Source: an uncultured Gemmataceae bacterium (lineage in GTDB: Bacteria > Planctomycetota > Planctomycetia > Gemmatales > Gemmataceae). From it: a DNA stretch of 58,363 bases. The position numbers were made by a program, and so were the translations under genes. Location of the stretch: positions 1 through 58,363 of the forward strand of contig CAVVPN010000006.1 in assembly GCA_963750165.1 (NCBI GenBank), read 5' to 3'. A model generated the notes under the pieces. The model saw nothing but the letters and a program-made list of their open reading frames with translations. It was not told where the DNA came from and ran no database searches. Positions within the stretch are counted from its first letter, which is position 1. The number at the start of each line of letters is the position of its first letter. This document shows, one piece after another, positions 3,949 to 38,435 of the stretch.

Positions 3949-4104
3949 ATGTTTTCCGAGTTCCGCGAGATAACTTGAGGTGCAATTTGCACCTAACTCA
4001 TGTTGCCGTCATGCATTGCAAGAAGCGTCTCGATTTTCGTTCATGTTGATGCCAGGCAGTTCAAGAAGGGGCTCCTTTTTCATTTTTCCGCGACTCTACC
4101 TTGG

Positions 4105-5613
4105 CAGTCGCACTTTTCCGAGTGCTCAAACCGCGAGATTTACGCAGTTTTTCAGCGCTTCGATGAGTTTCAGGAGTTCCGTTGCATCGGCCGACTTGGG
4201 TTTAATTAGGGCGTTCAAAGTCGCCCGCCGCAACACGGCAACCATATGACGCAACGACCATTCACTCTCCCAGGGTCCCATCACTTGCGCAATTCCTCCG
4301 CCTCCGGCAACTGCCGACCGGCGGTAAGATACCACACCATCACGACGCTCTGCAACGACCACACCCACGGCGCCACCTTCTCCACCGCTTCCCGACTGTA
4401 GTGTTGTGGCGCCTCGAGGTCCAGCACCTGTTTGCTCGCCCGGAACAGTACCTCAATGGACCAGCGCCAGGCGAACTGCGTAATCACCCACCCCACGTCC
4501 GCACGCACGTCGGTCGTGAACAGGTAGGCATCGTCCAACTTCCCGTCCGGGTCGCGCACCACCACCACCTGCACCGGCCGCAACCCCAACACCCGCGGCC
4601 ACACCGCCCGGTAGGCGAACGCCCGCAGGACGCGCTGCTCCCCGTAGACGGTCACCGTCACCGCCTGCCACACCCAGTCCCCGGTGGCCACGCGCTTACG
4701 GTCGGCCTTGGCGGCGGCTGCTTTGGGGTTGGGCAGACGCGGCCCCTTCTTCGCCTTGCGGCCGCGCCGGCCGGGCTTGGCCTGAGGCAGACGCGGGTCG
4801 TACACGGCCGCGTCGCCGCGCAACCGGCCGACGAAGGTCACGCGCTCGTCCAGGTCCGCCAGCAGCGCTTGGGCCGCGTAAGCGCCGTCGGCCACCAGGG
4901 TAAAGCGCCGGCCGGGGAACCAGGCCAGCACTTCGGCGAGCAGCGCGTGCGCGAGCAGTGGGCAGGACGGCTGCGCCTGGCCGGGCCGGTGCAACCGGGC
5001 CAGCAAGGGCAACGCCAGGATCGGGGCGTTCGCGAAGGGCAGGCAGACGGCGACGGCGACGACCACCCAGTTGTGCCCCGCGGCCGTGGCGGTGCGTTTG
5101 CGGGTCGAGGCGACGGCATCGCGGAACCAGCCGAGGCCCCAGACGTGCTTGCCGCGCTTGTGGGCCAGGGTGTCGTCCACCAACAGCGTGATGGTGCCGC
5201 CCAGGTGGAGGCGCGTGAGGATGAGGACGGCGACGTGGTAGGCCAACCCGGTCACGGTCCAGGCGGAGCGCGCAAAGAAGTTGTAGGTGGTGTCCAGGCC
5301 GTGGCGCCGGGAATGGTCCCGCAAGTCTTGGGGTTGGGCGGTGTCGGCGACGCGACAGAGGCGGTGCTGGCCCAGGCACATCACCCAGCCGAGCACGAGT
5401 TGGCAGTGGGTGTGGAACGAGGGCAGGGTGAAGGCCGGGGCGAGGGCTTGGACGATGGGCTGGAGAGAAGCTATCATCAGCCACATGAGGGGCTCCTTCC
5501 GGCGAGTGCATGGCTTGAGAACCTATGCACAAACTTAGGAGGAACCCCTCTCTCTTTCTGCGACAGCCCCGTGACACTATCGGTGTTCGTCTGTTCATGG
5601 AAGCGTGCGACAG
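4105..5613 (-). mobile_element. IS701-like (DDE) insertion sequence
   Basis: Imperfect IRs CAGTCGCACTTTTCC (4105) and CTGTCGCACGCTTCC (reverse complement ending 5613) flank the transposase. Confidence 0.7.
4126..5486 (-). CDS. DDE transposase (IS701-like), frameshift near 4285
   Basis: VDDTLAHKRG, GHNWVV, VADGAY, RWSIEVLF; C-terminus continues in another frame (WESEWSLRHMVAVLRRATL) to 4126. Confidence 0.85.
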
Positions 5614-6975: not shown

Positions 6976-8362
6976 GGCAGCCGTTCAAAATTAGTCCGCA
7001 GCTTACACCTGGGTGCTGATGTTAGAATATTGTCCAACGTGGCTTGATGGTGTAATTCCAACTGGGGCAGACGGCATGCCTTTGGAGGCGCCACGTCTGC
7101 ATTTCTGCGTCCGGCACCTTGACCCCCTTCGCGTACTCCGCGTCCAGCAACGTCGCACGTACCGCCCAACCGGCGTCCGTCTCCGTGCCCCGGATGCAGG
7201 CCAACAGCGTCTCCACGGTTCGCAGCGGCTCCCCCGCCCAGTTGACGCTGATGCGGCTGAACAGCCGGTGCTCCACCGGGTTCCACTTCGACGCCCCCCG
7301 CGGGTAATGGCACACCGTCACCCACAGCCCCCAGCGGTCGGCCAACTCCTCCTGGAGGCGCTGTTTCCACAACCGCACGCGGCAACTGTTGCTCCCGCCC
7401 GCGTCGCACAGGATCAGCAACTCGTCGGCCTGCGGGTACCACAGCCGTCCCTCGCCGCGCCACCACCGGCCGATCACGTCCCCCGCGAACGCCGCGGTGT
7501 CGGCGGACAACCCCACGTAGACATGGCCGCGGTCCTGGCGCACGTCGTAGACCCCGTAGGGGACGGCCCGGCCCAAGGCGTCGTCCAGGAAGTCGTGGGC
7601 GTTGACCTCCGTCGCGCGCCGGCACCACTGCCGCCCTGCATTCTTGAAGTTGCCGATCAACTCCTTTTTCTTGCTGTCCACGCTGATCACCGGCTGGCCG
7701 AGGATGGCGAAGCGGCGCCGCTGCCCGGCGATGTACGCGAACTGCCGGTCCCGGTCTGGGTGAGGCGGGCCGGTGAAGCGCTTGCGGTTGGCCTTGAGCG
7801 AATAGCCCAGGTCGTCCAACAGGCGATAGACCGTGGCGGGGCTGACGGCGAAGCCTTGGCCTTGCAACCGCGTGCTCAGGTAGGCGACGCTGTGGCGCAC
7901 CCACTTCTGACAGGTTTGCGGGCTGCCGGCGGTCTGCTCCTCAACCAGCTGCCTCAAAGCGTTCATGAGGCCCGGCACTTTTTTTTCACAGCGGGCCGTC
8001 CTGCCCCGGGCCGGCGGATGCGATCCGGGGGGCAGTCCCGCAGGGAGTCCTCGAGTTCCCGGCGACCGCGCCGGATGGTTTCCACGTTCAGGCCGGTGAT
8101 GAGGGACAGTAGGCGGTCGCCGCCGCGGCCGACCTTCTGGGACTCCCAGGCTGCCAACCACCGGCGTTGGTGCTCATCCAACCGGCTCAGGAGAAGGTTG
8201 AGCCGGTAATGGAGGGCGCGTTCGGGGTGGTCCGCACCTTGTCGGCAGTGAGGGCATTGGCATTGGTGGATGTCCACGGCTCTGCCTCCCTTCCAAACCA
8301 GGCCCCCGGTTGGGCCAGGGTTATTGTAGAAGGGAACTGCGGATTAATTTTGAAACGTTGCC
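6976..8362 (-). mobile_element. ISAzo13-family insertion sequence
   Basis: IRs GGCAGCCGTTCAAAATTAGTCCGCAG / GGCAACGTTTCAAAATTAATCCGCAG; TTA target duplication at 6973-6975 and 8363-8365. Confidence 0.92.
7022..8277 (-). CDS. ISAzo13 transposase, two ORFs joined by a probable -1 programmed frameshift
   Basis: ORF A 8277-7963; ORF B has ISVDSKKKELIGNF, CDAGGSN, SKWNPVEHRLF, WNYTI; A8-G slippery run at 7978-7986. Confidence 0.9.
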
Positions 8363-11316: not shown

Positions 11317-11550
11317 TCAGTTCCGGCGCGGGTCGTCGCGCGGATGCGTCAGGAGTTGGTCCCCCGGCCGGAGGTCTTCGACCCGTTTCGGGCCATCGGC
11401 GGTTGCCAGCAAGGTGCCAACGGAGACACCCGTTCGCAGGCAGGCCAGCACGTCGGCGGCTCCCTGGTCGGGCTCGTGTGGGCCGAACTCTGAGATGGCT
11501 TCGATTATCACGACTTGGTGCTTCTCCTTGCCGGACACTCGAACAGACAT
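11317..11550 (-). CDS. Mini-Hint ORF (Hint N-terminal segment, Cys1->Gly), shorter paralog of 28223-28579
   Basis: CLRTGVSVGTLLATADGPKRVEDLRPGDQLLT...RRN*. Confidence 0.6.
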   Translation of the reverse strand: MSVRVSGKEKHQVVIIEAISEFGPHEPDQGAADVLACLRTGVSVGTLLATADGPKRVEDLRPGDQLLTHPRDDPRRN

Positions 11551-11572
11551 ATTTAATAACTCTTCTCGTCAC

Positions 11573-12106
11573 TCAAGGTCGCGTAAGATACCAATAAAGG
11601 TACTGTTCGAGATTTGGGAACCTGTTGAACTCATAATTATCATACGACCAAACTTCTGGTTCGCTGATCTCGTCTTTCCAGGCAAGATAAATCAGAACGT
11701 CCGGCACTCCCGGTGTGACACCAAAAAGAGACAACTTATTATCAGAGAACAACATAGGTGCAGAACCTTCGTAGTGCCCACGCAAAGCTGTGTGCCGAAT
11801 TCTGATTGACCGTTTTTTTATCCATTTCATCATATCCTTTGTCCCAAGCCAAAGATACCAACCCGTATCCACAGTGCTTGCATACTCAAATCTAGCCCGC
11901 AACATTTCGGTCGGGCTGTAAGTTGCCTTCGAGGAAAAGGTCGGAATTGTATCAAATGCTTCTGGTGGATTGATCGCAATCTCCAATGGGTCGAAGGGGC
12001 CCTGTTTTGCCATGTAGCTTTCCGCTTCCTCTTTTCTTCGAGGGAAGTCCCTAACAATGTCATCCAACAGTTTCCAAATTCTGCGCTGAGTGTCCAGTTT
12101 TTCCAT
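11573..12106 (-). CDS. Immunity protein for cassette 6 (possibly SUKH-like)
   Basis: AT-rich ORF directly after the tip; C-terminal EPEVWSY...RFPNLEQYL. Confidence 0.7.
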   Translation of the reverse strand: MEKLDTQRRIWKLLDDIVRDFPRRKEEAESYMAKQGPFDPLEIAINPPEAFDTIPTFSSKATYSPTEMLRARFEYASTVDTGWYLWLGTKDMMKWIKKRSIRIRHTALRGHYEGSAPMLFSDNKLSLFGVTPGVPDVLIYLAWKDEISEPEVWSYDNYEFNRFPNLEQYLYWYLTRP

Positions 12107-12148
12107 GTTTAATTACCGCTTTCTGGGAGTCACGAGAAGACGAATTCA

Positions 12149-14370
12149 CTACACCAACCGCACATCATGATATGTCGTCCCCACTGAAATGTGAGGGTAA
12201 ATCGATGAAATGTACGCATTAACAGTTGGATGGAGAGCCATGAATCTTCCGTTTGCGGGAACAGCAGTACCCCCAGCAGCAGCGTCGGGCACATGCCCAA
12301 CGTCTCGATCCTTAACTCGATCAGGGTGTGCTCGTCGGATCCTTCTCCTCCAATTATGAGCATCAGCGTTTTCCACAGATGTTGGTGTCCTTCGTGTCAG
12401 AGAGCCACCGGCATCGGCAATCGCTTTCTTCCACTTCGCCACGTACCTTTGAAGATGGCGGTATTCAACCGTGTTAGATTTGTAAGGGTTTGTAATTTCA
12501 ATGGTTGTTTTGCCATTCTGATCAGTGGCCACATTACATGCGTTGTGCGCCCAGACGGAGAAGCCCCAGTCGTCGCCGCCGACGAAGTAGGTGTGGAAGT
12601 CGGCGACGCGCAGGTTGTAGACCGTCTCGTACGCGCCGGTGTCGTAGACTTCCTCGACGACGGCCCACCGGCCCCCCGTGCGGGTCGAGAGCAGGTCCCC
12701 CGGCTGCAATTCCTGCGCCGCCACCCAGCCCTTGCCCTTAACCCGGAACGGGTGCTCGCCCGTCGTCCGGATCACCCGGCCGGCCACGTGCAGGTGCCAG
12801 ACCCGCCCCAGCGTCGCGAACACCGCCTCAACCTCTTTTACCTCCACCGGCCCGTCCGCGTCCAGTTCATTCCGCGACCACAGCTTGTCCCCGGGGTGGA
12901 AGTCGATGATCGGCTTCCACCCCGCGGGCGTCTCCAACTCCGTCTCGAACGTGAAGCACGAGCGCGTGGCCGAGAAGATGTCCGCGGCGCCCTGCGCGAC
13001 CTGGAGCATGCCGCCGACCAGGTCGCCGTTGGCGATGGCCTGGATGCCCTGCACGCCGCTGCCGACCCCCTGCACCACCGACACGCCGCGCGTCACCCAG
13101 CTCGCCGCGAACTGCGCCACCGAGCCCGCGAACTCCCCGGCCACCTTGCCCACCGCGCACGGCCCCGCCTGGATGAGCAGCATCGCAAACGACTGGCCCG
13201 CCATCCAGCCCGCGTCCGTCCACCGCCCCGCCAGCGCCACGTCCCCCGCCTGCGCCAGCCCCCCGGCCAGCTGGTAGCCGCGCAGCGCGTTGGCCGCCAC
13301 CCCCAGCCAGCCCCCCGGCGTCCACACCGTCAGCGCGATCTGCACCACCTGACCGGCCTGCTGCCCCGCCTGGTACGCCCCCGACTGCGTGTTCAGGAAC
13401 CCGCCCAGGCTCAGGTCGCCCCCCGTCAGCAGCCCGTACCCCGAGCTGTTCAGCAGCCAGCGGCCGAACTGCGTGCGGAACAGCCCCCCCGTCAGCTGGT
13501 CCGCCACCCCCGCCGCCCACTCCACCCCGCGCCGCCAGTAGTCCGTCGTCACGCTCCCGCCCGGCGGCAGGGCGGCGCGCAGCGCCTCCCAGCTCTTCGT
13601 CGCCGCCAGCGCCAGCGGGTCGGCCGCCCGCGCCGCCTGCTCGAAGCGCAGCCAGGCGTCGTCCAGCACGGGCTCGGCTGGCCCGCCCGGCAGCAGCAGC
13701 GCCCACACCCGCCATTGGTTCACCGGCAGCCCCGCGCCGGCGCTCGCCTGCGTCAGCCAGTCCGTCTCGCGCGTCGCCGGGTTGTAGGGGCCGTCCGGGA
13801 CCCGCCACGGCCGGTCCGTCATGGCGAACACCCGCCAGCCCGTGAAGTACGGGAACAGGCCCTCGTACTTGGCCGCCACGCCCGGCGCCAGCGGCGGCGT
13901 CACCAGCCCATCCGGCAGGGGCAGTGCCAACGCCCGCGGCCAGTGCGTCGGGTCGGCCAGGCCGTCCGCCCCGCCCGGCTCGAGGATCTCCGTCCAGCCC
14001 TGCAGCAGGTTCAGCCCGGCGTGGTTCGGCTCCCCCGGGCCGGCCAGCGCCGCCGCCGTGTCGGTCGGCCCGTTGCTGTAGTTCTCGGTGCTGCCGCCCT
14101 GGGTGTAGGTGGCGTAGGACGCGGCACTGGCGGTGCCGGTGGCCCCCGTCCCCGAGACGGTGAGCAGACTGAGCGTCGCCAGGGTGCCCACCCCGCTGCC
14201 GCTGACCGAGTCGTAGCCGGTGTCCAGGCTGCTCTGGTTCAGGTCGTAGGAACTCAGGTCGTAGGCGGGCGCGCTGTTGCCCACGGCGGTGGACGTGCCG
14301 GCGGCGTGCAGGCTGTAGGTGCCGCGCAGGTCGCGGTTGTGCTCGAAGCTGGTGCCGCCGCTGTCGCCCG
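12149..14370 (-). pseudogene. Orphan toxin cassette 6: neck, Hint (allele C), HNH-like nuclease tip (12149-12541)
   Basis: Open frame but 5'-truncated; tip DVGHVPDAAAGG...VN resembles a beta-beta-alpha-metal motif. Confidence 0.85.
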
Positions 14371-14484
14371 CTTGGTGGCCGCCGTGGGAGGGGGTAAGCC
14401 CGCCGTCGAAGGTAAGGTCGCCACTATCCTGGTTGATGTCGGCGCTGTTGATGAATCTGCTGTTGGTGCCAGATCTGAGGCTGA

Positions 14485-14946
14485 TTAATTGCGTAGCAAT
14501 TTACGAACTTCTTCAGTTTCAATGTCTAGCGCAAAGGCTAACGATTCGATGAATCTTTCATCTTCAAGACGGTCCGTCTCAAATTCGGGGTGGCGAATAA
14601 GCCGCCAGATTAGCTGCTCACCCCCAATTTCTCGTAAATCGTCCAACATGGAACTCAGTTCAAAAGTGAACCCACCATATTTTGTGTCGGGATTGACTTT
14701 TTTTCCGACGTATAGAGACATTAAAATTTCAATAGCAGCCTCCAAGTTAAGTTGCGCCAGCGCCCCGAACGCTGTTATAGGAAATATCCGATTGACAATT
14801 AGTCCCTGCAGAAGCTTTTCATCTTCTGGCGTCCCAATTTCTGAGAATAAACTCGCATCAGTACGCCGCCAGGCTTCAAGAAGTTCGTTCTGCGCTTGCA
14901 AAGCCTGTTGCGCTTTTTGTCGAAAATCTTCAAGGTTCTCACTCAT
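14485..14946 (-). CDS. Putative second immunity protein (helical, unassigned)
   Basis: AT-rich ORF with GAGGGA RBS, directly after the SUKH gene. Confidence 0.55.
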   Translation of the reverse strand: MSENLEDFRQKAQQALQAQNELLEAWRRTDASLFSEIGTPEDEKLLQGLIVNRIFPITAFGALAQLNLEAAIEILMSLYVGKKVNPDTKYGGFTFELSSMLDDLREIGGEQLIWRLIRHPEFETDRLEDERFIESLAFALDIETEEVRKLLRN

Positions 14947-14978
14947 ACATCCCTCGGAATTATTGTAGCGGACGGATG

Positions 14979-15419
14979 TCACACCAGTTTCTCAAGAAGT
15001 TCGTCCACGCTAGAAGCAACTTCATAGAGGCTGCTGGGGGCGTCGCCTTGCGGATGCTCATGATCCCAGAAAAAGATCTTCCCTGCGGAGTCACCCGAAG
15101 TGCATGTACATAACATATTGCCGCCCGTGTCGATTGCTATCGGAATGAAGCGGTCAGGGATGTAGTCTTCGGCATTCTGAAAGCTGGCCTCCAGGTCATA
15201 GTACCCGCCTTGACCGATGCCCAAAAAATGGTTGACGCAGGTGGACTGACCAGACCATCCGGGGATGAACAGGCGGTCGGGAGTCGGCTCTCCACCGTTG
15301 GTCTTCAAGAGAAACGCTTTGTACGAATCGGGAAGCGATATGCCATTTCGTTGCTCAAACTGTTCGATCTCCTTCCTCGAAACTGGAGGAGCCTGTTTGG
15401 TGATCTTGGCAGCCGTCAT
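14979..15419 (-). CDS. SMI1/KNR4 (SUKH) immunity protein
   Basis: EIEQFEQRNGISLPDSYKAFLLKTNGG, IPIAIDTGGNMLC, GKIFFWDHE, VASSVDELL. Confidence 0.92.
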   Translation of the reverse strand: MTAAKITKQAPPVSRKEIEQFEQRNGISLPDSYKAFLLKTNGGEPTPDRLFIPGWSGQSTCVNHFLGIGQGGYYDLEASFQNAEDYIPDRFIPIAIDTGGNMLCTCTSGDSAGKIFFWDHEHPQGDAPSSLYEVASSVDELLEKLV

Positions 15420-15442
15420 TGACGCTCTCCCTATGCTCCTTA

Positions 15443-15556
15443 GAGGCTGTTCCAAATGCAAACGTTTGTTCAGTATGACTTATTACTGACAGTGTCGAAA
15501 ACAGCGCGTTTTTTAGCTACTAACACGGTAGCTATTTAGCCTTTTGGAACAGCCTC
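15443..15556. mobile_element. 114-bp MITE with IS5-family-like ends
   Basis: Perfect 14-bp TIR GAGGCTGTTCCAAA...TTTGGAACAGCCTC; TTA duplication at 15440-15442 and 15557-15559; no ORF. Confidence 0.85.
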
Positions 15557-15563
15557 TTAGTTG

Positions 15564-17812
15564 TTACAGCCCAGAAACGCCACCCGCGTGGGGGAAGCCT
15601 CCGAGGGCGACATTGTGGATGCTTGAGGGGACAAGCAGCATGTGGACACCATCCTCATGATGATGCCAAGTCGTGCCTTCGATTGGTGCTTTCGCTCCCG
15701 CTTCCGGCATGCCAACCGCTTTGTTTGCTGCGATGAAATCTTTGTAGCGGTCGGGCTGCTGCTTGCCGATTTTCACCTTCGCCAGAGCATGAGGACCGAA
15801 GTCGGGGTGGCCCTGCGAGTTATATGTGACAGTTACGCCATCCTTCCTGATGTAGGTGGTGTACCCCGGAGCGCCGTCGTTTTCGATGACGAGGCCGCCC
15901 TTCTTTTCCCATTTCTTCTTGTTGGGCATGTAGTCGCGGGCATCACCATATTCGTTATGCGCCCAGACGCTGAAACCCCAGTCGTTGCCGCCGACGAAGT
16001 AGGTATGATAATCGGCGACGCGCAGGTTGTAGACCGTCTCGTACTCGCCGGTGTCGTAGACTTCTTCTACGACCGCCCACTGGCCCCCCGTGCGGGTCGA
16101 GAGCAGGTCCCCCGGTTGCAACTCGTGCACGGGCCGCCAGCCCTTGCCCTGAACCCGGAACGGGTGCTCGCCCGTCGTCCGGATCACCCGGCCGGCCACG
16201 TGCAGGTGCCAGACCCGCCCCAGCGTCGCGAACACCGCCTCAACTTCTTTTACTTCCACCGGCCCGTCCGCGTCCAGTTCATTCCGCGACCACAGCTTGT
16301 CCCCGGGGTGGAAGTCGATGATCGGCTTTAACCCCGCGGGCGTCTCCAACTCCGTCTCGAAGGTGAAGCACGAGCGCGTGGCCGAGAAGATGTCGGCGGC
16401 GCCCTGCGCGACCTGGAGCATGCCCCCGACCAGGTCGCCGTTGGCAATCGCCTGGATGCCCTGGACGCCGCTGCCGACCCCCTGCACCACCGAGATGCCG
16501 CGCGTCACCCAGACCGCCGCGAACTCCGCCACCGAGCCCGCGAACTCCCCGGCCGCCTTCGAGGCCGTCCAGCCCTTGGCCGCCGCGCCCACCACGCACG
16601 GACCCGCCTGAATCGCAAACATCGCGAGCGACTGGCCCGCCATCCAGCCCGCGTCCGTCCACCGCCCCGCCAGCGCCGCGTCCCCCGCCTGCGCCAGCCC
16701 CCCGGCCAGCTGGTAGCCGCGCAGGGCGTTGGCCGCCACCCCCAGCCAGCCCCCCGGCGTCCACACCGTCAGCGCGATCTGCACCACCTGACCGGCCTGC
16801 TGCCCCGCCTGGTACGAGCCCGACTGCGTGTTGATGAACCCGCCCAGGCTCAGGTCGCCCCCCGTCAGCAGCCCGTACCCCGAGCTGTTCAGCAGCCAGC
16901 GGCCGAACTGCGTGCGGAACAGCCCCCCCGTCAGCTGGTCCGCCACCCCCGCCGCCCACTCCACCCCGCGCCGCCAGTAGTCCGTCGTCACGCTCCCGCC
17001 CGGCGGCAGGGCGGCGCGCAGCGCCTCCCAACTCTTGGTCGCCGTCAGCGCCAGCGGGTCGGCCGCCCGCGCCGCCTGCTCGAAGCGCAGCCAGGCGTCG
17101 TCCAGCACGGGCTCGGCCGGCCCGCCCGGCAGCAGCAGCGCCCACACCCGCCACTGGTTCACCGGCAGCCCCGCCCCGGCGCTCGCCTGCGTCAGCCAGT
17201 CCGTCTCGCGCGTCGCCGGGTTGTAGGGGCCGTCCGGGACCCGCCACGGCCGGTCCGTCATGGCGAACACCCGCCAGCCGGTGAAGTACGGGAACAGGCC
17301 CTCGTACTTGGCCGCCACGCCCGGCGCCAGCGGCGGCGGCACCAGCCCATCCGGCAGCGCCAGCGCCAGCGCCCGCGGCCAGCGCGTCGGGTCGGCCAGG
17401 CCGTCCGCCCCGCCCGGCTCGAGGATCTCCGTCCAGCCCTGCAGCAGGCTCAGCCCGGCGTGGTTCGGCTCCCCCGGGCCGGCCAGCGCCGCCGCCGTGT
17501 CGGTCGGGCCGTTGCTGTAGTTCTCGGTGCTGCCGCCCTGGGTGTAGGTGGCGTAGGACGCGGCACTGGCGGTGCCGGTGGCCCCCGTCCCCGAGACGGT
17601 GAGCAGACTGAGCGTCGCCAGGGTGCCCACCCCGCTGCCGCTGACCGAGTCGTAGCCGGTGTCCAGGCTGCTCTGGGTGAGCAGGTAGCTGCCCAGGTTC
17701 TCGTCGGGCGCGTTGTTGCTGTGAGCGGTGGACGTGCCGACGGCGTGCAGATTGAAGGTGCCGAGCAGGTCGCGGTTGTGCTCGAAGCTGGTGCCGCCGC
17801 TGTCGCCCGTCT
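15564..17812 (-). pseudogene. Orphan toxin cassette 5: neck, Hint (allele C), WHH-family HNH nuclease tip (15564-15953)
   Basis: Tip GHPDF...DFIAANKA...TWHHHEDG..MLLVP..IH...HAGG; paired with a SUKH gene. Confidence 0.9.
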
Positions 17813-17896
17813 TGATTGTCGCGGGCCAAGCAGAGGTATATTTTATTCCTAACTCATTTCACCATCATACTTTGCCAGAAGCGTCCCCAATTATCC

Positions 17897-18135
17897 TCAC
17901 GGCGGGTGGAAAATCCGGCGGCGCCAGTTGCGCTCCCACCAGCGAAGCTCGCCATCGCCCTGGCCGTCGTCGGCGTGCGGCTTGTGGTTGCCCTGGTGGT
18001 CGCCGGGCTGCCCCTGGATCATGTCGCCCGGCTTGATGTCCTCGATGCGCTTGTAGCCGTCCGCCGTCAGGAGCGGCGTCCCGGCGGCGAAGCCGAGAAT
18101 GGGCCTGGGGTCAGCTGGTTGGGTTCTGGTGTTAT
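17897..18135 (-). pseudogene. Mini-Hint reading frame (Cys1->Gly), no intact start; not in the ORF track
   Basis: Manual translation: PRPILGFAAGTPLLTADGYKRIEDIKPGDMIQG...RWWERN...; AAGGAG upstream at about 18144-18149. Confidence 0.65.
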
Positions 18136-18154
18136 TGGCTTCACTCCTTGGAGG

Positions 18155-18553
18155 TCATGCCCACTCTTTTTTGGTCAGGGCTTGAACTAGGTCCCTCTTG
18201 AAACGCTCGGCATCGAAGTCGGAAATCTTCAACTCCCCGGACAGGTCAAGGGACCGCAGGATCGCCGCCGCAAGGAGCTTCCGTTGGGTGAGTGCATCGC
18301 CTTCCTTGAAGGCTTGATGGTCCACCTTCAGCCGGAACTCTACTACTCCGGTGCGCTTCTTGTAGCGCCGAACTTCCGGGTAGGCTGGATCGTCTTCGTC
18401 CATGATGATGTAGATGAGCGCCCATTCGGTCACGCCAGCACCATAGTCCTCGGAAGCGACCGAGGCGTTCAACGCCTGCTCCACATCCTTTCGGGCGAAG
18501 CGATACGGTTCAGCTATGTCGCTCATTACCTCGCCTGAAGTCCACACCCGCAT
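18155..18553 (-). CDS. Immunity protein, Imm44/Imm12-like
   Basis: DYGAGV..W.LI.II...YPEVRRYKK...EFRLKVDH..F; GGAG RBS; follows the URI2-type tip. Confidence 0.75.
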   Translation of the reverse strand: MRVWTSGEVMSDIAEPYRFARKDVEQALNASVASEDYGAGVTEWALIYIIMDEDDPAYPEVRRYKKRTGVVEFRLKVDHQAFKEGDALTQRKLLAAAILRSLDLSGELKISDFDAERFKRDLVQALTKKEWA

Positions 18554-18561
18554 AGTGTCTC

Positions 18562-21500
18562 CTAATAGTTGCTCCTGTTCAGTTGCGGGCGCTGCCCGAA
18601 CTGATCGACGTGATCCAAGATCATCCGGTTCTGCCAGGCGTGCATCGCCCGCTTCGTGCCCACTTTCTCGAAGACCATATCGGCGTTGATCGAATCCAGG
18701 TATTTCTTGGAATACCGGGTCGTGCCGGGCTTGGTCGTTTCGCCGTACTTGAGGATTTCCCCGGTGTCACGATCCCGCAGCGTGTAGCCCCGTGCCTTGG
18801 CGTTGGTGTTCAGGCTGTTGCCGTGGAGCAGGCTTTCATCCACATAGCCCTGCTTCACCGCATGTTCCTTGATGGCACGCTGCTGCTTGGGCGTGAGTTC
18901 TCCCCAATCCGTGGCCCGGCCCTTCTTGACATCCTTGGCGTACTTATTGGCGAAGCCGTCCTTCTCCTTGGCCGACATCCGCTCTGCATATTCATTGTGT
19001 GCCCAGACGGAGAAATCCCACCCATCGTCGCCGACGAAGTAGGTGTGGAAGTCGGCCACGCGCAGGTTGTACACCTGCTGGTACAGGCCGCTTGGCGCCA
19101 CCCCCTCCACCGCCGTCGTCGCGCCGACCGTCTTCCCCAGGATACCGTCACCAATAGCCAACTCGCCCGCCGCCGTCCAGCCCCGACCCGCCACCCCGAA
19201 CGAGTGCTCCGCCGTCGTCTCGATGATGCGCCCGCCCACGTGCAGGTTCGTCACCAACGCCCAGGTCACGAACACCGCCTCGACCCGCTTCCACACCAGC
19301 GGACCTTCCGGGTCGTTCTCGTCCCGCGACAGCACTTCGTCGCCCACCCGCAGCCGGTCCAGCCGCCGCCAGCCCTCGCCCCAGTCCCCCCGCGCGTACA
19401 CCTTGGTCCGGCCCGTGAAGCACGAGCGCGTGGCCGAGAAGAGGTCCGCGGCGCCTTGCGCGACCTGCAGCATGCCCCCGACCAGGTCGCCGTTGGCGAT
19501 GGCCTGGATGCCCTGCACGCCGCTGCCGACCCCCTGCACCACCGAGATGCCGCGCGTCACCCAGACCGCCGCGAACTCCGCCACCGAGCCCGCGAACTCC
19601 CCGGCCGCCTTCGAGGCCGTCCAGCCCTTGGCCGCCGCGCCCACCACGCACGGACCCGCCTGAATCGCAAACATCGCGAGCGACTGGCCCGCCATCCAGC
19701 CCGCGTCCGTCCACCGCCCCTGCAGCGCCACGTCCCCCGCCTGCGCCAGCCCCCCGGCCAGCTGGTAGCCGCGCAGCGCGTTGGCCGCCACCCCCAGCCA
19801 GCCCCCCGGCGTCCACACCGTCAGCGCGATCTGCACCACCTGACCGGCCTGCTGCCCCGCCTGGTACGCCCCCGACTGCGTGTTCAGGAACCCGCCCAGG
19901 CTCAGGTCGCCCCCCGTCAGCAGCCCGTACCCCGAGCTGTTCAGCAGCCAGCGGCCGAACTGCGTGCGGAACAGCCCCCCCGTCAGCTGGTCCGCCACCC
20001 CCGCCGCCCACTCCACCCCGCGCCGCCAGTAGTCCGTCGTCACGCTCCCGCCCGGCGGCAGGGCGGCGCGCAGCGCCTCCCAACTCTTCGTCGCCGCCAG
20101 CGCCAGCGGGTCGGCCGCCCGCGCCGCCTGCTCGAAGCGCTGCCAGGCGTCGTCCAGCACGGGTTCGGCCGGCCCGCCCGGCAGCAGCAGCGCCCACACC
20201 CGCCACTGGTTCACCGGCAGCCCCGCCCCGGCGCTGGTCTGCGCCAGCCAGTCCGCCTCACGCGTCGCCGGGTTGTAGGGGCCGTCCGCCACCCGCCACG
20301 GCCGGTCCGTCATGGCGAACACCCGCCAGCCGGTGAAGTACGGGAACAGGCCCTCGTACTTGGCCGCCGCGGTCGGCGCCCCAGGCGGCACCACCAGCCC
20401 ATCCGGCAGGGGCAGCGCCAGCGCCCGCGGCCAGCGCGTCGGGTCGGCCATCCCGTCTGCCCCGCCCGGCTCGAGGATCTCCGTCCAGCCCTGCAGCAGG
20501 CTCAGCCCGGCGTGGTTCGGCTCCCCCGGGCCGGCCAGCGCCGCCGCCGTGTCGGTCGGCCCGTTGCTGTAGTTCTCGGTGCTGCCGCCCTGGGTGTAGG
20601 TGGCGTAAGACGCGGCACTGGCGGTGCCGGTGGCCCCCGTCCCCGAGACGGTGAGCAGACTGAGCGTCGCCAGGGTGCCCACCCCGCTGCCGCTGACCGA
20701 GTCGTAGCCGGTGTCCAGGCTGCTCTGGTTCAGGTCGTAGGAACTCAGGTCGTAGGCGGGCGCGCTGTTGCTCACGGCGGTGGACGTGCCGGCCGCGTGC
20801 AGGCTGTAGGTGCCGCGCAGGTCGCGGTTGTGCTCGAAGTTGGTGCCGCCGCTGTCGCCCGTCTCGGCCGAGCTGAACGAGCCGGTGGCGGCGTCGTCTT
20901 GCGTGAAGCCGATGGTCGTGGTGCCGCTGGCGCCGGTGTTGGTGACATTCAGCGCCAGGGTGAAGCCGCTGTCACCGCCGCCGGTGGCCGAGAAGCTGTC
21001 CGTGCCCGACTGGCCGCTGTAGGACCACGACTCGTAGGTCCCCTTGGCGGCGCTGTAGCTGTTGCCCCCGGTCTGGTCGTCCGTCCAGCGGGCGCCGGCG
21101 AAGTACTGGAACGAGGTCACCGACACGGTGTCCGTGGCCCACTGCTCGTCGCTGGAGGAGTAGCTGCCCAGGTTGGTGTCGCGGAAGCCGCTGCCCGTGG
21201 TCGTCAGCGTGTTGCGGCCGGCCAAATCGATGGACAACTCGTCGCCGCTGGTGACCTTCAGCGCGTAGCTGGACAGGCCGTAAGGCCAGCCGCTGCCGCC
21301 GGCCGCGCCCTCGACGTGCAGGGTGGCCAGGGACCAGCGGTCGTCCTGGGCGGTGCCGGCCTGCCAGGAGTCGTCCTGGGTGGTGGCGGTGGCGTTGAAC
21401 GGCGCGTTCTGGCCCAGCGCGAAGGTGCCGGTGACCGTGCCGTTGGCCGACACCGTCTCCCGGCTGGTGTACGTCACGCCCTGCGTGGCACTGGCGACGC

Positions 21501-22379
21501 CGTCGAGCAGGAAACAGGACAGGCCCGAGTCGTCATACTCGCGGTGGCTCTCGTAGTCGCCGTTGCTCAGGGCCAGCAGACTGAAAGTGGTGGTGGCGTT
21601 ATCCTCGCTGATCAGGTTCTGCACCCCCCTGGGGTGCGCGGACGACCGCAGGGACGTTTGGGTCTGGATGCTGTGGGTGACGCGGTCGTCGGTCAGGGTG
21701 AGCTGGCTCTCCCCCTCGGCGTCGAAGACGACCGAGTCCAACACCCAGCCACCCTGATCGAGGCTGTAGCTGCCGGCCTGGTGCTGGTTGAACTCGTCGT
21801 CAGACGACTGCTGGAGCACCTGGGTCTGGCTGCCGTCCTGCGTGCCGGTGACCAGCGAGGTCGAGAGCGAGGTGTCGGTCATCGAGAAGCCGGACTCGTC
21901 GGTCTGGGTCGTGGTGAGCACCGACGAGGACAGCGCCGCGTCGCGCCAGTCGAAGGTCATGCTGTCCAGCGCGTACGAGCCGCCGGCGAACGAGCCCGAC
22001 TGGGACAGCGCGTAGCTGCCGGTGCTGACCGTCGTGGCCCGGGAGTTGCCGGCCCGGTCGGTCTCGTAATCCTGGAAGCCGTTGTGGCTGAAGCTGCCGG
22101 CGGCGCCGCCCGAGTCGGTGTCGGCCAGCGCGGTGCTGTAGCCGCTGGTGCTGCACTGCTCGCTGCCCTCGTAGTGGATGCACTCCACCGAGGTCAGGGT
22201 GGTCGTGGTGGTGCCGACGCGGGTGGTCGTGTAGACGACGCTGCCGTAGGCGTAGCTGCCGGCGGCGTAGACGCCCTGCTGGGCCTGGCTGGAGTACACG
22301 GCGTAGGAGGCGTTCGCGGTCTGGAGCGTGCTGACGGTGGTGTTGCTGACGGCGGCGCGGCTGCGGCGGTCGTAGTCCA
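18562..22379 (-). pseudogene. Orphan toxin cassette 4 (longest): stalk end, neck, Hint (allele B), Tox-URI2 nuclease tip (18562-18993)
   Basis: Uninterrupted 1272-aa frame without a true N-terminus; tip HGNS...GYTL...LKYGET...RY...P.LN. Confidence 0.88.
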
Positions 22380-22462
22380 ATGGCCCAAGGCGGTGACGAT
22401 CTCGGCGGCCCAGTCGCCGTCACGGGGCGAAGGTGAGTCGCTAGTGTCGCGAGGCCGTTTGA

Positions 22463-28222: not shown

Positions 28223-28579
28223 TCAATTCCGGCGCAGGTCGTCGGGCGGGCGCGTCAGGAGTTGGTCGCCCGGCCGGAGGTCTTCGACTTTTTTGGGGCC
28301 GTCGGGGGTGGCCAGCGTGGTGCCGGCCAGCAAGCCGCCGTGGCGCAGGCAGCGGGTGATGTCGTCCTCCGGCTGCGGCGCTGCGGCCCCGTCGCTGCCG
28401 CGGGTGACGGCCTCGATGGTCAGGGTGCGGCCGTCCTGACCGAGGAACCGGTCACCGGCGCGGAGGTCGGCGGCCAGGGTCCAGCCGCGGTTGAGGACGT
28501 AGAAGGGGCGGGCCGCCGTCGTCCGGATGGTTTGACCGCGGACGTACAGGGTGACGCCATCGCTTGGGGTGAGAGCCAT
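28223..28579 (-). CDS. Circularly permuted, catalytically dead stand-alone Hint-like protein (118 aa)
   Basis: GGAGG RBS plus ATG; Hint middle (IRTTAARPFYV..RGW..AADL.AGD) precedes Hint N-terminus (GLLAGT.LATPDG.KKVEDLRPGD.LL). Confidence 0.7.
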   Translation of the reverse strand: MALTPSDGVTLYVRGQTIRTTAARPFYVLNRGWTLAADLRAGDRFLGQDGRTLTIEAVTRGSDGAAAPQPEDDITRCLRHGGLLAGTTLATPDGPKKVEDLRPGDQLLTRPPDDLRRN

Positions 28580-28795
28580 CGCTTCCCTCCCGGTGCTTGG
28601 GAACCTGGGTGGCGACGGGCACCGCCCGCCGGCGTGTGGGCTTTGGCCGGCCGCGGCCGAGGACAGCGGCAGCCTCATTGTCGCCCACCTTCCGACCCGC
28701 TCGTCTCGCTGAACCACTTGAGGTGCAGTTTGCCGCTAATTGGTTTTACTGTAAGTCATTGCGGGAATCTTCCCGATTTTCCCGCCACCGGACCT

Positions 28796-29143
28796 CTAAT
28801 GTCGTTTTCGACGACGCTTGCTCTCTTTTACTGATGTTCTCAGATCTCGCCACCTCCACGAAATAAGGCCATCTGGTTGTATCGCAGGGATGGAAATACC
28901 CCTTTTATCACCTTTTTCATCTAACAACTCCCAATTATCCTCGTTTAAGAAATGCTCCGGGAATGGTGGATCCTGCGAGAAATTATCTGGGTTTGTCATA
29001 AAATTGAAAAATTCAAAGAATTCAGAGGTAACACTAGGGCCCGGAGCAAACTGTCCATGCATCCAAAGGCCCTCGCCCTCGACAGACGTAATTTCTCCAA
29101 GCACCCGGCCAGAGAAAAGTAATTCCACAGCGTTTTTCCTCAA
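28796..29143 (-). CDS. Cognate immunity protein of the full-length toxin
   Basis: TTG start overlaps the toxin TGA; AT-rich; no recognised family. Confidence 0.7.
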   Translation of the reverse strand: MRKNAVELLFSGRVLGEITSVEGEGLWMHGQFAPGPSVTSEFFEFFNFMTNPDNFSQDPPFPEHFLNEDNWELLDEKGDKRGISIPAIQPDGLISWRWRDLRTSVKESKRRRKRH

Positions 29144-32100
29144 TGCGATCTTGTGACCGTCAAAAACCGAGATGGGACAACCCCCTGGATCAAGTACTCA
29201 TTGTCTCTGATTGCGAAGGATGTTGCCATCTTCTTCCAATGAGGAGTGAGGTTGGGATCGCGCTGGATTGCTCTCCGCACCTGCGATGGCGTGTAAATCC
29301 TCACCCCTTTTACTTCACCGGACCTGATCGCGGCCCGAAGTCCTTTGAGATCGACCTTAATGACGTTTTTCCCGTATCCAGCCGCAACCTGCCCATTCGG
29401 CGTGAGACTAATGAAGGGGCTATTGGACTTGGCACGTCCCCGGAACCCACCAAGGACATGCTCACCAACCGAGACTTGCCTGCCCTTATATTGCCCAGTC
29501 AGGCTCGCAGGTCGCAGATCGCCAGCCCGGTTAATGTAAGGTTTACGGAGTCCGTTCTTCGGGCTTAGGGCTTTCCGGGGAGCGTCATCACCTCGGTAGC
29601 CGTTGTTCGCGTTGTGTGCCCAGATGGAGAAGCCCCACCCATCCCCGCCAACGAAGTAGGTGTGGAACTCCTCCACCTGGAAGTTGTAGACCGTCGTCAC
29701 TTCGCCCGTGTCGGTGACGCCTTCGACGCGCAGCACCTGGCCGTCGTGGCTGAGCAGCAGGTCGCCGTCCTCCAGGAACGCCGCCCCCGTCCACCCCTTC
29801 CACAAGACGTAGAACGGGTGCTCCGCCGTCGTCCGCACCTCCACCCCCGCCACCCGCACCGCCAGTATAGGCGCCACCCGCACGAACGTCTGCACCACCC
29901 GCCGGTACGCCAGCGGCCCGTCCGGGTCGTCCTCCGCGCGCGACAGCAGCCGGTCGTCGAAGGTGATGTCCTCCACCGCCTTGAGGCCGCCTTCGGTGTG
30001 CAGCTTGGTCCCCGCCGGGAAGCACGAGCGCGTGGCCGAGAAGAGGTCCGCGGCCCCCTGCGCCACCTGCAACATGCCCCCGACCAGGTCGCCGTTGGCG
30101 ATGGCCTGGATGCCCTGCACGCCGCTGCTGACCCCCTGCACCACCGACACGCCGCGCGTCACCCAGCTCGCCGCGAACTGCGCCACCGAGCCCGCGAACT
30201 CCCCGGCCACCTTGCCCACCCGCGCACGGCCCCGCCTGGATGAGCAGCATCGCAAACGACTGGCCCGCCATCCAGCCCGCGTCCGTCCACCGCCCCGCCA
30301 GCGCCACGTCCCCCGCCTGCGCCAGCCCCCCGGCCAGCTGGTAGCCGCGCAGCGCGTTGGCCGCCACCCCCAGCCAGCCCCCCGGCGTCCACACCGTCAG
30401 CGCGATCTGCACCACCTGACCGGCCTGCTGCCCCGCCTGGTACGAGCCCGACTGCGTGTTGATGAACCCGCCCAGGCTCAGGTCGCCCCCCGTCAGCAGC
30501 CCGTACCCCGCGCTGTTCAGCAGCCAGCGGCCGAACTGCGTGCGGAACAGCCCGCCCGTCAGCTGGTCCGCCACCCCCGCCGCCCACTCCACCCCGCGCC
30601 GCCAGTAGTCCGTCGTCACGCTCCCGCCCGGCGGCAGGGCGGCGCACAGCGCCTCCCAGCTCTTCGTCGCCGCCAGCGCCAGCGGGTCGGCCGCCCGCGC
30701 CGCCTGCTCGAAGCGCTGCCAGGCGGCGTCCAGCACGGGCTCGGCCGGCCCGCCCGGCAGCAGCAGCGCCCACACCCGCCATTGGTTCACCGGCAGCCCC
30801 GCGCCGGCGCTCGCCTGCGTCAGCCAGTCCGTCTCGCGCGTCGCCGGGTTGTACGGGCCGTCCGCCACCCGCCACGGCCGGTCCGTCATGGCGAACACCC
30901 GCCAGCCGGTGAAGTACGGGAACAGGCCCTCGTACTTGGCCGCCGCGGTCGGCGCCCAGGCGGCACCACCAGCCCATCCGGCAGGGGCAGCGCCAGCGCC
31001 CGCGGCCAGCGCGTCGGGTCGGCCATCCCGTCTGCCCCGCCCGGCTCGAGGATCTCCGTCCAGCCCTGCAGCAGGCTCAGCCCGGCGTGGTTCGGCTCCC
31101 CCGGGCCGGCCAGCGCCGCCGCCGTGTCGGTCGGCCCGTTGCTGTAGTTCTCGGTGCTGCCGCCCTGGGTGTAGGTGGCGTAAGACGCGGCACTGGCGGT
31201 GCCGGTGGCCCCCGTCCCCGAGACGGTGAGCAGACTGAGCGTCGCCAGGGTGCCCACCCCGCTGCCGCTGACCGAGTCGTAGCCGGTGTCCAGGCTGCTC
31301 TGGTTCAGGTCGTAGGAACTCAGGTCGTAGGCGGGCGCGCTGTTGCTCACGGCGGTGGACGTGCCGGCCGCGTGCAGGCTGTAGGTGCCGCGCAGGTCGC
31401 GGTTGTGCTCGAAGTTGGTGCCGCCGCTGTCGCCCGTCTCGGCCGAGCTGAAAGAGCCGGTGGCGGCGTCGTCTTGCGTGAAGCCGATGGTCGTGGTGCC
31501 GCTGGCGCCGGTGTTGGTGACATTCAGCGCCAGGGTGAAGCCGCTGTCGCCGCCGCCGGTGGCCGAGAAGCTGTCCGTGCCCGACTGGCCGCTGTAGGAC
31601 CACGACTCGTAGGTCCCCTTGGCGGCGCTGTAGCTGTTGCCCCCGGTCTGGTCGTCCGTCCAGCGGGCGCCGGCGAAGTACTGGAACGAGGTCACCGACA
31701 CGGTGTCCGTGGCCCACTGCTCGTCGCTGGAGGAGTAGCTGCCCAGGTTGGTGTCGCGGAAGCCGCTGCCCGTGGTCGTCAGCGTGTTGCGGCCGGCCAA
31801 ATCGATGGACAACTCGTCGCCGCTGGTGACCTTCAGCGCGTAGCTGGACAGGCCGTAAGGCCAGCCGCTGCCGCCGGCCGCGCCCTCGACGTGCAGGGTG
31901 GCCAGGGACCAGCGGTCGTCCTGGGCGGTGCCGGCCTGCCAGGAGTCGTCCTGGGTGGTGGCGGTGGCGTTGAACGGCGCGTTCTGGCCCAGCGCGAAGG
32001 TGCCGGTGACCGTGCCGTTGGCCGACACCGTCTCCCGGCTGGTGTACGTCACGCCCTGCGTGGCACTGGCGACGCCGTCGAGCAGGAAACAGGACAGGCC

Positions 32101-35100
32101 CGAGTCGTCATACTCGCGGTGGCTCTCGTAGTCGCCGTTGCTCAGGGCCAGCAGACTGAAAGTGGTGGTGGCGTTGTCCTCGCTGATCAGGTTCTGCACC
32201 CCCCTGGGGTGCGCGGACGACCGCAGGGACGTTTGGGTCTGGATGCTGTGGGTGACGCGGTCGTCGGTCAGGGTGAGCTGGCTCTCCCCCTCGGCGTCGA
32301 AGACGACCGAGTCCAACACCCAGCCACCCTGATCGAGGCTGTAGCTGCCGGCCTGGTGCTGGTTGAACTCGTCGTCAGACGACTGCTGGAGCACCTGGGT
32401 CTGGCTGCCGTCCTGCGTGCCGGTGACCAGCGAGGTCGAGAGCGAGGTGTCGGTCATCGAGAAGCCGGACTCGTCGGTCTGGGTCGTGGTCAGCACCGAC
32501 GAGGACAGCGCCGCGTCGCGCCAGTCGAAGGTCATGCTGTCCAGCGCGTACGAGCCGCCGGCGAACGAGCCCGACTGGGACAGCGCGTAGCTGCCGGTGC
32601 TGACCGTCGTGGCCCGGGAGTTGCCGGCCCGGTCGGTCTCGTAATCCTGGAAGCCGTTGTGGCTGAAGCTGCCGGCGGCGCCGCCCGAGTCGGTGTCGGC
32701 CAGCGCGGTGCTGTAGCCGCTGGTGCTGCACTGCTCGCTGCCCTCGTAGTGGATGCACTCCACCGAGGTCAGGGTGGTCGTGGTGGTGCCGACGCGGGTG
32801 GTCGTGTAGACGACGCTGCCGTAGGCGTAGCTGCCGGCGGCGTAGACGCCCTGCTGGGCCTGGCTGGAGTACACGGCGTAGGAGGCGTTCGCGGTCTGGA
32901 GCGTGCTGACGGTGGTGTTGCTGACGGCGGCGCGGCTGCGGCGGTCGTAGTCCAGGGTGCCCTGGGGGGCGGTGAGCGTGGCCAGGGCGGTGTCCTTGCT
33001 GATGCTGCTGAGCGAGATGGTCTGCAGGTAGTTCGTGGAGCAGGCCAGGGCGGTGGTCTGCTCGGAGGCGGTCGTGGCCAGGCTGTCGCTGTAGGCGTTG
33101 ACGCTGGACAGGTCCCAGCCGGCGTTGGTGAGGTAGCCGTCCTCGTAAGCGCGGTTGGTGGACTTGACGTAGCGCGTGGTGTTGTGGTTCTCGACGCCGT
33201 ACTGCGTGGCGACGGACGTCTGGCCGGAGGAGAAGCTGCCGTCGCCGAAGGTGTAGGAGGCGCTGCTCTGGGCCTGGAAGTTGGTGGTCGCGGTGGTGGC
33301 GAGGCTGCTGGTGGTGGCGGCGGTCTCGGTGAACGTGGTCAGGTCGGAGCCGCGCTTGTCGGTGGTCAGGTGGTCGAAGGCGAAGGTGCCGTTCACGACC
33401 GAGCCGTACTGGATGACCGTGCCGGTGCTGGTGCCGGTGCTGGTGAACGTGTCGTTGGTCGCCTGGCTGAAACTGCTGGTGGTGAGCGAGGTGGCGGTGA
33501 ACGTCGCCAGGCCGTAGCCGGCCGGGGAGTCCCCGGTGGTGACCGTCTGCAGGTCCCAGGTTTCGCCGGCGGTGCTGGTGACCAGGGAGTACTGGTTCTG
33601 GGTCAGTGACTCGGTGCTGGTCTCGGTGTTGACCACGCTTGACAGCCCCCAGGTGTCGTTGGTGAACGAGCCCAGCTGGAGGATGGTGTAGCCGTTGACG
33701 AAGCTCTGGTTGGGTACCGAGACGGTGTTGCCGCTCGCCTGCGTGGCCCGCGCGTCGTGGACGACCGTGAAGGAGTCGGCGCCGTTGGCGACCACGCCGG
33801 AGGTGCTCGTCTGCGTGCCCTGCACGGTGAAGGTGTCGGCGGTGGCGTTCGAGGAGGACTGCAGGGCGGTTTGCTGGTACGTGCCGCGGGACACGCCGGT
33901 CTGGGTGTAGACCATGCTGTCGTAGCTGAAACTGCCGTCGAAGTACGCGCCGGTCTGCGTCTGCGTGGTGGTGGTGTTACTGGTCTGGATCAGGGCGTCG
34001 GTGCTGCCGCGGCCCAGGGTGTTGGTCAGGCTGCTGCCGAACGTCACGCCGCCGGTCAGGGTCGTCTCCAGCGCGCCGGTGCCGTAGTAGCCCTGGTAGC
34101 GGACCTCGGTGCTGGTGGCGCCTGAATACTTTTCGAGGTTGAGCGTTTCGGAGGACCCCTGGAACGAGTAGACGCTGCCGAAGGCGTAGCTGTCGTTGGC
34201 GAAGGCGCCCTGCTCGGTGTACAGGTAGCTGCTGGCGCTATTGGTGGTGCTGCTCTGGACCGCCGAGGAAATCTCGGAGTAGGTGCTCAGGCCGGACGCG
34301 CTGAACAGCCCGGTGGCGGCGTAACCGCCCGGCACACCCGTGTCGCTGGCATAGATGGCGTCGATGGAGAAGGTGTCGCCGCCGGTGCCGGTCTGCGTCG
34401 TCGTGCTGGTGGACAGGACCGTGCTGCCGCTGGTGCCCGACTGGTTTTGCGTGACGTTCGCGAAGGCGTAGCTGTCGCCGTTGAAGTCGCCGAGTTGGGT
34501 GAACGTGCTGTAGTCGGTCCCCGTCTCCGTCGAGGTGAACGAGGTGGTAGCCGTGGTGGTCTGCGCGGACCAGCGTGTGAACGACTGCGGCCCCAGCGCG
34601 GGCAGCGTGTTGCTCGGGAAGACGGCGGCGCCGGAGCGCTCGCCGGTGGCGGTCCAGCTGTCGGTGTTGCCGTCGCTGGCCGTGCCCTGCTGCGTTTGCG
34701 TCCAGCTGGTGGTGCCGTAGTCGCCGGAGTTGACGCTGGACAGGTTGTAGCTGTCGCCGTTGAAGACGCCGGCCTCGTAATAGGTCGAGGTCGTGGTGCT
34801 GTAGGCCGTGTAGGCGGACGTGCTGAACAGGCTGTGCGACTCGCCCGACCGCCCCGCGCGCACCACCCGGGCCGGGCCGCCGCCCACGGGCAGCGTCCAG
34901 TAGGTGTAACTGTCGCTGAGGCTGTTGCTGGACGTGCTCGTGTCGGTCTGCTGGAAGGTGCCGTTCTGGTGGCTCACCTGCTGGTTGACCACGCTGGTCA
35001 GGCTGTAGCTGAAGTTACTGAAGATGCCGGCGCCGGTCTGCGTCGCCAGGCTGTCGCCGTTGTTCTGACTGGTGGAGCCGGTGGTGTCGCTGAAGGTGCC

Positions 35101-38358: not shown

Positions 38359-38435
38359 GCCGCACTCCTGTAAGGCGCTGGGCTCGTCTCCTCCGCCCGA
38401 CGGTCGGTCTGGACGGGCGAAAGAAGGGAGGTTGG

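Follow-up and report, generated by a model that had tools for sequence, protein, structure and literature searches.

Why would a row of genes for self-cleaving toxins carry, beside its immunity genes, further small genes for pieces of the cleaving Hint domain in which the catalytic cysteine has become glycine? The question is raised by contig CAVVPN010000006.1 of an uncultured Gemmataceae bacterium (assembly GCA_963750165.1), which was analyzed over its whole length of 58,363 nucleotides (nt), here called the window, and which bears three such genes on its minus strand, designated 11317, 17897, and 28223 after their left ends. A preliminary description had proposed that they form an accessory gene family of the toxin system rather than debris from the local Hints; with respect to ancestry, position, and coding selection, that proposal stood. 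We conclude that these genes and their homologues, which we call G-Hints, are a real, lineage-restricted, Hint-derived family of the Gemmataceae that is tied to Hint-toxin cassettes. What they do is a more tentative matter. Judging from sequence, they may act in trans and restrain self-cleavage of the toxin, a braking role that we favor with somewhat less than even confidence.

The three frames lie on the minus strand at the places described, and each has Gly at the Cys1 position when aligned with the local Hints. The described R-N endings were likewise present (RRN and a stop in 11317 and 28223; WWERN and then TGG in 17897). Block A of each copy matched Pfam Hint_2 with E values of 4e-5 (11317), 5e-4 (17897), and 3e-6 (28223), all below the curated cut-off. 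The copies had been called mini-Hints, and the term fits 17897; the 28223 product, in contrast, is a permuted Hint of 118 amino acids (aa) that matches Pfam PT-HINT (positions 44 to 101) first and Hint_2 (positions 3 to 30) afterwards, and 11317 is its shortened relative. The 28223 protein has Arg in place of the block B His and aligns without gaps over 118 residues with family member P0089 (42% identity); it is the window's only intact-looking copy and likely the working one. Nor are the copies mutually diverged throughout, as first thought. 17897 is only 50 to 53% identical to the other two, whereas 11317 and 28223 share 77% aa and 78% nt identity over block A, the same base of entry into the neck, and 70% aa identity over 46 residues (phmmer, 52 to 118 versus 13 to 77), giving two lineages. 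We regard 11317 as a shortened derivative of 28223 whose status is uncertain. The open frame of 17897 (17897 to 18154) continues past WWERN and TGG for 8 further codons. Its lack of an intact start, noted from the outset, proved to be one of three lesions: ATA (18133 to 18135) for the family Met, a one-base frameshift near 18112, and TGG (17924 to 17926) for the stop. Typical family N-terminal residues follow the ATA in another frame, and past the Asn codon 20 nt agree to 90% with the flank that follows the stop in a copy of genome G316. Unless the assembly is wrong at those bases, 17897 is a pseudogene. Four low-share DNA runs contained just short pieces of relatives, away from these lesions, and no RNA run was listed as a carrier.

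A search with the 28223 protein returned one full-length relative, whose own search returned 24 proteins; a profile of the block A-tail unit then yielded 154 proteins of 18 to 128 aa, the best 120 of which were listed. The 142 listed proteins consist of 138 family proteins, 2 canonical Hints, and the window's own 2. Among 143 block A copies listed, position 1 is Gly in 119, Leu in 18, Ser in 1, and Cys in at least 3, a lower bound because the profile, built from Gly members, biases the Cys tally and 34 weaker hits fall below the listing. The family as a rule lacks the Cys or Ser that an active PT-HINT or bacterial intein-like domain requires at this position. Homologues that mostly retain the Cys and are truncated full Hints were an outcome that the preliminary description named as refuting it, and this was not found: the block F motif of a full Hint (a strand-hairpin with His) occurs in 0 of 145 family proteins. 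An Asn directly before the stop ends 101 of 140 listed proteins. In these 101, position −3 is Glu in 88 cases and position −4 is Trp in 76; the residue before the Asn (−2) is highly variable, with 13 different letters, and is His in only 5. Canonical Hints of the same loci end in S-V-W-A-H-N, with Trp at −4 in 72 of 73; because the spacing of the Trp is equal, the W-x-x-N tail probably represents a block G that has lost its His. In block B, the His of T-x-x-H is kept in 59 of 65 modules.

Two forms recur, a mini of ~65 aa, from which block B is absent, and a permuted Hint with block B before block A. When the 142 listed proteins were sorted by pattern, 79 had block A alone, and the others were B-A in 41 (~44 with pattern variants), A-B in 10, and a few A-B-A and B-A-B. 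Subfamily 1, to which 17897 belongs, has a PILG-F..GT motif and an acidic linker; subfamily 2 (20 proteins, P0089 among them, to which 28223 aligns) is mostly 116 to 118 aa long, carries the motif PFPC-TG-L, and has a short ERN ending. A Cys stands 3 residues before the dead position 1 in subfamily 2 (19 of 19 listed: P0097, P0080, P0089, and 16 others) and 4 to 5 residues before it in 28223 and 11317; a displaced catalytic Cys was considered, but subfamily 1 has none. Clusters of the family are nearly all singletons. When 28223 was compared with 1.84 billion representatives, the best 150 of 2429 matches added to the family five small proteins and a longer one, P0169, in which a permuted G-Hint follows an N-terminal extension of ~170 unrelated residues, possibly through read-through or gene fusion. 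Three long proteins examined for their junction-spanning matches were tandem canonical Hints; P0151, P0154, and P0168 have three to five of these, and in two of them a membrane segment and other domains come next. The family is not represented by any NCBIfam model, and an Atlas search gave generic Hint clusters only.

Descent from the Hint superfamily is established by both sequence and fold homology to Hint subdomains. The family profile matched Protein Data Bank (PDB) entry 2LWY in swapped order (profile 6 to 68 to 53 to 115, and 87 to 118 to 5 to 36; E = 1e-21). AlphaFold2 monomer models of P0008 and P0097 had a confident B module and low overall predicted TM scores (pTM) of 0.40 and 0.50. 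Block A is not docked in the monomer model, because only residues 1 to 71 superpose on inteins (Z = 9.7; root mean square deviation of 2.8 over 69). Compared with the canonical consensus, block A is without the strands against which it normally packs and would appear to need a partner. A Foldseek search gave no match at E ≤ 0.001.

We then asked whether the proteins are under selection. In 12 subfamily 1 block A modules, the proportion of nonsynonymous differences (pN) was below that of synonymous differences (pS) in 66 of 66 pairs (means, 0.27 and 0.51), and in all 17 block A modules it was so in 125 of 136; the pairs are non-independent and were chosen by protein similarity. Identity by codon position in the 12 modules was 0.68/0.78/0.55, with the second position the most conserved. 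Close pairs had pN/pS values of 0.06/0.21, 0.13/0.38, 0.02/0.17, and, for 11317 and 28223 (37 codons), 0.15/0.35; for B modules only close pairs were used, as that set contains a misplaced row (L193). This pattern gives moderate support to selection at the protein level. AGGAG- or GGAG-like sites precede many starts, including the internal Met before block A. Trees of 65 columns, one of them without six family rows dropped by pattern and each with one window Hint, clustered the family label (2 changes, versus 22 and 13 in shuffles) and resolved neither a single family origin nor the place of 28223.

Each window copy has a small low-GC gene on one side and the beginning of the next neck on the other, as originally described; the description of the upstream genes as immunity genes is backed by Pfam only at 18155 to 18553 (Imm44), whereas for the other two it rests on position and composition. 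Outside the window, 18 of 19 loci with DNA have a small co-oriented gene directly upstream of the G-Hint, the exception (L050) lying among Hint fragments. Before that small gene stands a PT-HINT toxin in 10 of the 19 loci (GHH, AHH, WHH, and Ntox17 among them); 3 further loci have a GH-E nuclease or SUKH gene, and 5 are too short for a toxin to show. The suspected link to toxin loci was thus borne out. A G-Hint does not directly follow the toxin domain, the place of a cognate immunity gene: another gene intervenes in the 3 window cassettes and, outside the window, in each of the 10 loci where a Hint toxin is visible. In G316, homologues of the 12149 toxin and of the 11573 immunity gene (44% identity for the latter) are also followed, in that order, by a G-Hint. 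Of the 19 outside copies, 9 read through to the Asn-stop and 8 are broken by truncation or interruption, while a contig end cuts off the remaining 2. Cassettes that start inside the Hint lie directly downstream of the G-Hint in L132 and L191; in L127 and L131 they lie nearby. The closed genome G023 (L126 to L140) has 37 Hint matches in several arrays and two G-Hint copies found, both degenerate. P0029, a copy annotated in Tuwongella immobilis, likewise looks degenerate.

Gly-type copies were present in 9 of 252 Gemmataceae genomes, including the window's own (9.6 Mb), where they were found only in the window array. No Gly-type member was found outside the Gemmataceae in samples of 400 genomes of the class and 400 of the phylum, with 15 candidates scored per genome. 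A search of genome contigs with P0002 gave no relative, a strict DNA pattern occurred at 1 locus in genome contigs and at 0 in viral contigs, and a search of plasmids with P0028 gave no match. The toxins therefore do not need a G-Hint, since its presence is sporadic.

By the features tested, G-Hints lie outside any active Hint, intein, or AXH family. They share with PT-HINT or bacterial intein-like domains (PF07591; PDB 2LWY, their best PDB match) descent by sequence and fold, the same loci, and, in most B modules though not in 28223, the block B T-x-x-H; unlike these, they stand alone, lack Cys1 and block F and usually the penultimate His, and have no fused toxin, the chain stopping after the Asn where an active domain has a His-Asn end and then its toxin domain. 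Blocks A and B are often reversed, so that the A-B-F-G order of the closed fold is broken in 28223 and in ~44 of the 142 listed proteins. Inteins of the atypically split kind (whose N-terminal fragment, IntN, is short, as in PolB16, or Cat, PDB 6DSL) also encode block A separately and have an acidic tail, but G-Hints have no nucleophile, no identified C-terminal (IntC) partner, and a block G-like end; no host-protein N-extein precedes the Gly, which has before it just the B module or a short leader rich in Pro. A Hint fold without a Cys1 or Ser1 nucleophile is likewise found in inteins of class 2 (KlbA) and class 3. These inteins are complete, are embedded in host proteins, and splice via other nucleophiles, in class 3 with a block F Cys (passages of PMC7664689), whereas G-Hints lack block F and a +1 residue and stop after the Asn. 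With orphan toxin-immunity cassettes (contact-dependent inhibition [CDI], Rhs, and MafB arrays), G-Hints share the array logic and frequent decay and differ in following the immunity gene, having their own start signals, and being non-homologous to the local recombination region. The AXH domain (PF08517), known from ataxin-1 and HBP1, is a Hint-related module without a splicing role, and its homodimer forms through exchange of an N-terminal motif. The family profile matched ataxin-1 AXH weakly (E = 0.002 over block A), as did the fold (Z = 2.9). The 28223 frame scored far under the Pfam AXH cut-off (15.1 bits versus 33), canonical Hints match AXH better, and G-Hints, unlike AXH domains, are bacterial, free-standing, permuted, and tied to toxin cassettes. 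In the literature covered, outside subscription journals, we found no account of toxin loci with Hint genes that are inactive, permuted, or stand-alone; PMC3482391 and PMC7738311 were among the papers covered. The family is apparently undescribed.

We hypothesize that producer cells would make the G-Hint in their cytoplasm alongside the immunity protein. The block A part of the G-Hint (first strand, hairpin, helix, and fourth strand) would exchange into the toxin precursor's own Hint, because alone it cannot complete a Hint subdomain, and would place Gly where Cys1 acts. In most members, the W-x-x-N strand would take the place of the W-A-H-N strand, and the resulting dead hybrid Hint would delay release of the toxin domain. 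Intermolecular domain swapping of Hints is, by its title, the subject of a published paper. The short N-fragments of atypically split inteins provide a precedent for such a segment as an exchangeable unit (passages of PMC10189870). Such a brake accounts for where the genes lie, why precisely the catalytic residues are gone, and why the terminal Asn is kept. The wider proposal, that dead, circularly permuted or halved Hints swap strands with the toxin's Hint and gate toxin release, forming a third class of cassette gene and showing that the pseudo-symmetric halves of the fold can be reordered, is one that we regard as possible yet doubtful.

Several observations weigh against a brake, which explains the many broken copies, patchy presence, and five module orders less well. 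Of 17 assessable outside copies, 8 are broken, and carriers are scattered (9 among 252 genomes of the family and 3 of 7 window cassettes); the window's WHH/SUKH pair has no G-Hint although its homologue in G500 has one. An Asn end is missing from 39 of 140 listed proteins, the 20 proteins of subfamily 2, with 28223, have no Trp tail, and one precise binding mode is hard to reconcile with five architectures and two kinds of tail. The low pTM, obtained with 16 to 50 sequences, may stem from shallow alignments; pN/pS is only ~0.5 in a set picked by protein similarity; and 28223 sits on a long branch, for which the approximately unbiased test gave P = 0.58 for one family clade and P = 0.52 for joining a local Hint. 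We infer that G-Hints do something for the toxin system; many copies are decaying.

If G-Hints had weak or no function, they could be old, dead, rearranged Hint fragments that hitch-hike behind immunity genes and are spread by the recombination that shuffles cassettes. Broken copies (8 of the 17 outside and at least 1 of 3 in the window), modules shuffled into five orders, near-singleton clusters, and sporadic presence would all follow; 4 of 7 window toxin cassettes are frameshifted too, and 20 nt of 3′ flank are common to G000 and G316 and also to G026 and G503. In the 14 3′ flanks compared, no shared DNA site of a recombination or repeat element was found beyond these related pairs, and a mere remnant fits poorly with pN below pS even in the close pairs, a terminal Asn kept although the preceding codon varies widely, ribosome-binding-like sites with ATG at fixed places, and a subfamily 2 that mostly stays at 116 to 118 aa. 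Broken copies, patchy presence, and five module orders therefore keep this account alive as the main rival, on balance an unlikely one. Far less credible is an origin of each copy as a broken piece of the array's own Hints. The statement that the local Hints differ in sequence held for block A (3 to 47% aa identity) and less well just upstream of it in 11317, where the 13 residues before the Gly (11431 to 11470) match a local neck-Hint junction at 6 positions, in register, compared with at most 4 for other junctions (70 compared); this likeness is possibly due to gene conversion or chance. The tree also does not reject 28223 joining a local Hint. However, 17897 is 72 to 81% identical to family members of other samples (81% over 59 aa to P0035), 46 to 61% to the best canonical Hints over block A only, and at most 40% to local block A; 28223 aligns ungapped with family members over its entire permuted length; and more than 130 homologues from unrelated samples have the same features. 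Local debris is thereby refuted for 17897 and, by architecture, for 28223, and possibly contributed in part to 11317 only.

Two other functions can be imagined for the family. G-Hints might be adaptors resembling AXH, half-Hints that dimerize with themselves through the pseudo-symmetry of the fold or bind another partner and leave Hint cleavage unaffected. The ataxin-1 match over block A, the open monomer models, and the free reordering of A and B modules, which suits a symmetric assembly, point that way, as does the description of the Hint fold as two pseudo-C2-related subdomains (passages of PMC7664689). We consider such an adaptor improbable: AXH scores are far below the cut-off and lower than those of canonical Hints, the mini form is without the long strands that a half-domain needs, and the strict place behind Hint-toxin immunity genes is left unexplained. 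Slightly more improbable still is that the Gly1 block A completes orphan Hints lacking their N-terminal segment, so that no N-terminal cut is made and the toxin is freed by Asn cyclization. Short natural IntN fragments exist (passages of PMC10189870), Hint-truncated cassettes lie downstream in the four loci named above, and the tails are acidic (median net charge, −7; 63 tails). Yet the window's downstream cassettes have whole Cys-Hints, orphan toxin fragments typically have no start signals (passages of PMC4725963), the partner already has a last strand, with which the W-x-x-N tail would compete, and a B module, which B-containing forms would duplicate.

A brake on Hint cleavage, if real, would be a new kind of part for polymorphic-toxin weapons. 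How Hint toxins avoid or time self-cleavage in the producer is a question that a dedicated dead-Hint gene makes testable, and the proposal that the fold arose through duplication and swapping is touched by the existence of Hints that are naturally permuted or halved. Tools for conditional splicing and cleavage would benefit from an inhibitor or trigger of Hints that can be genetically encoded. If functionless, the family still marks the movement of cassettes between Gemmataceae genomes.

The array in which the three copies lie occupies the minus strand as a large gene (30886 to 38508) and a row of 7 neck-Hint-toxin cassettes (Table 1). PT-HINT is present in 7 of 7 cassettes, and the array also encodes a WHH nuclease, a deaminase-like domain, and SUKH and Imm44 immunity genes. 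A small low-GC gene lies directly 3′ of 6 cassettes, and a transposase lies 3′ of the seventh. Four of the 7 toxin cassettes, including the main gene, carry frameshifts in the neck or beside the Hint (8395 to 38508), which may be real decay or assembly error.

Table 1. Coordinates of the G-Hint copies and neighboring features in the window
Feature	Positions	Strand	Basis or remark
G-Hint, permuted (118 aa): block B module, then linker and Gly1 block A, ending in RRN-stop	28223..28579	−	Pfam order
Shine-Dalgarno-like GGGAGGG, 5 nt ahead of ATG at 28579	28585..28591	−	Sequence
G-Hint, 5′-shortened relative of 28223: last B-module strand, linker, block A with Gly1, RRN-stop; 77 aa	11317..11550	−	
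G-Hint mini pseudogene: PILG-block A, acidic linker, RWWERN	17924..18135	−	Three lesions
AAGGAG ribosome-binding-like site	18144..18149	−	5 nt after Imm44 stop, 8 nt before ATA
Likely immunity gene of 29140 toxin	28796..29143	−	Low GC, no Pfam
Canonical PT-HINT (Cys1, His-Asn) and toxin domain of main gene	29140..30396	−	Reached across frameshifts
Imm44 immunity gene	18155..18553	−	Pfam E = 2e-16
Orphan cassette: neck, canonical PT-HINT, toxin domain	18562..22419	−	
Likely immunity gene of 12149 toxin	11573..12106	−	
Orphan cassette: neck, canonical PT-HINT, toxin domain	12149..14500	−	

Three window pairs (12149/11573, 15564/14979, and 25303/24937) recur in other Gemmataceae genera at 37 to 83% identity (compared loci L130, L193, and L002). 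A second low-GC gene (14485 to 14982), with no convincing Pfam match, follows the SUKH immunity gene at the usual place of a G-Hint. The distal end of the array is interrupted, right after the 8395 toxin, by two transposase genes (4281 to 5486 and 7022 to 8343) of the DDE_5 and ISAzo13-like types, the ISAzo13-like gene being split over two frames. Ahead of the 28223 gene, 66 noncoding nt (28700 to 28770) are 74% like positions 3973 to 4038 at the distal array end, and each of these stretches precedes a cassette remnant.

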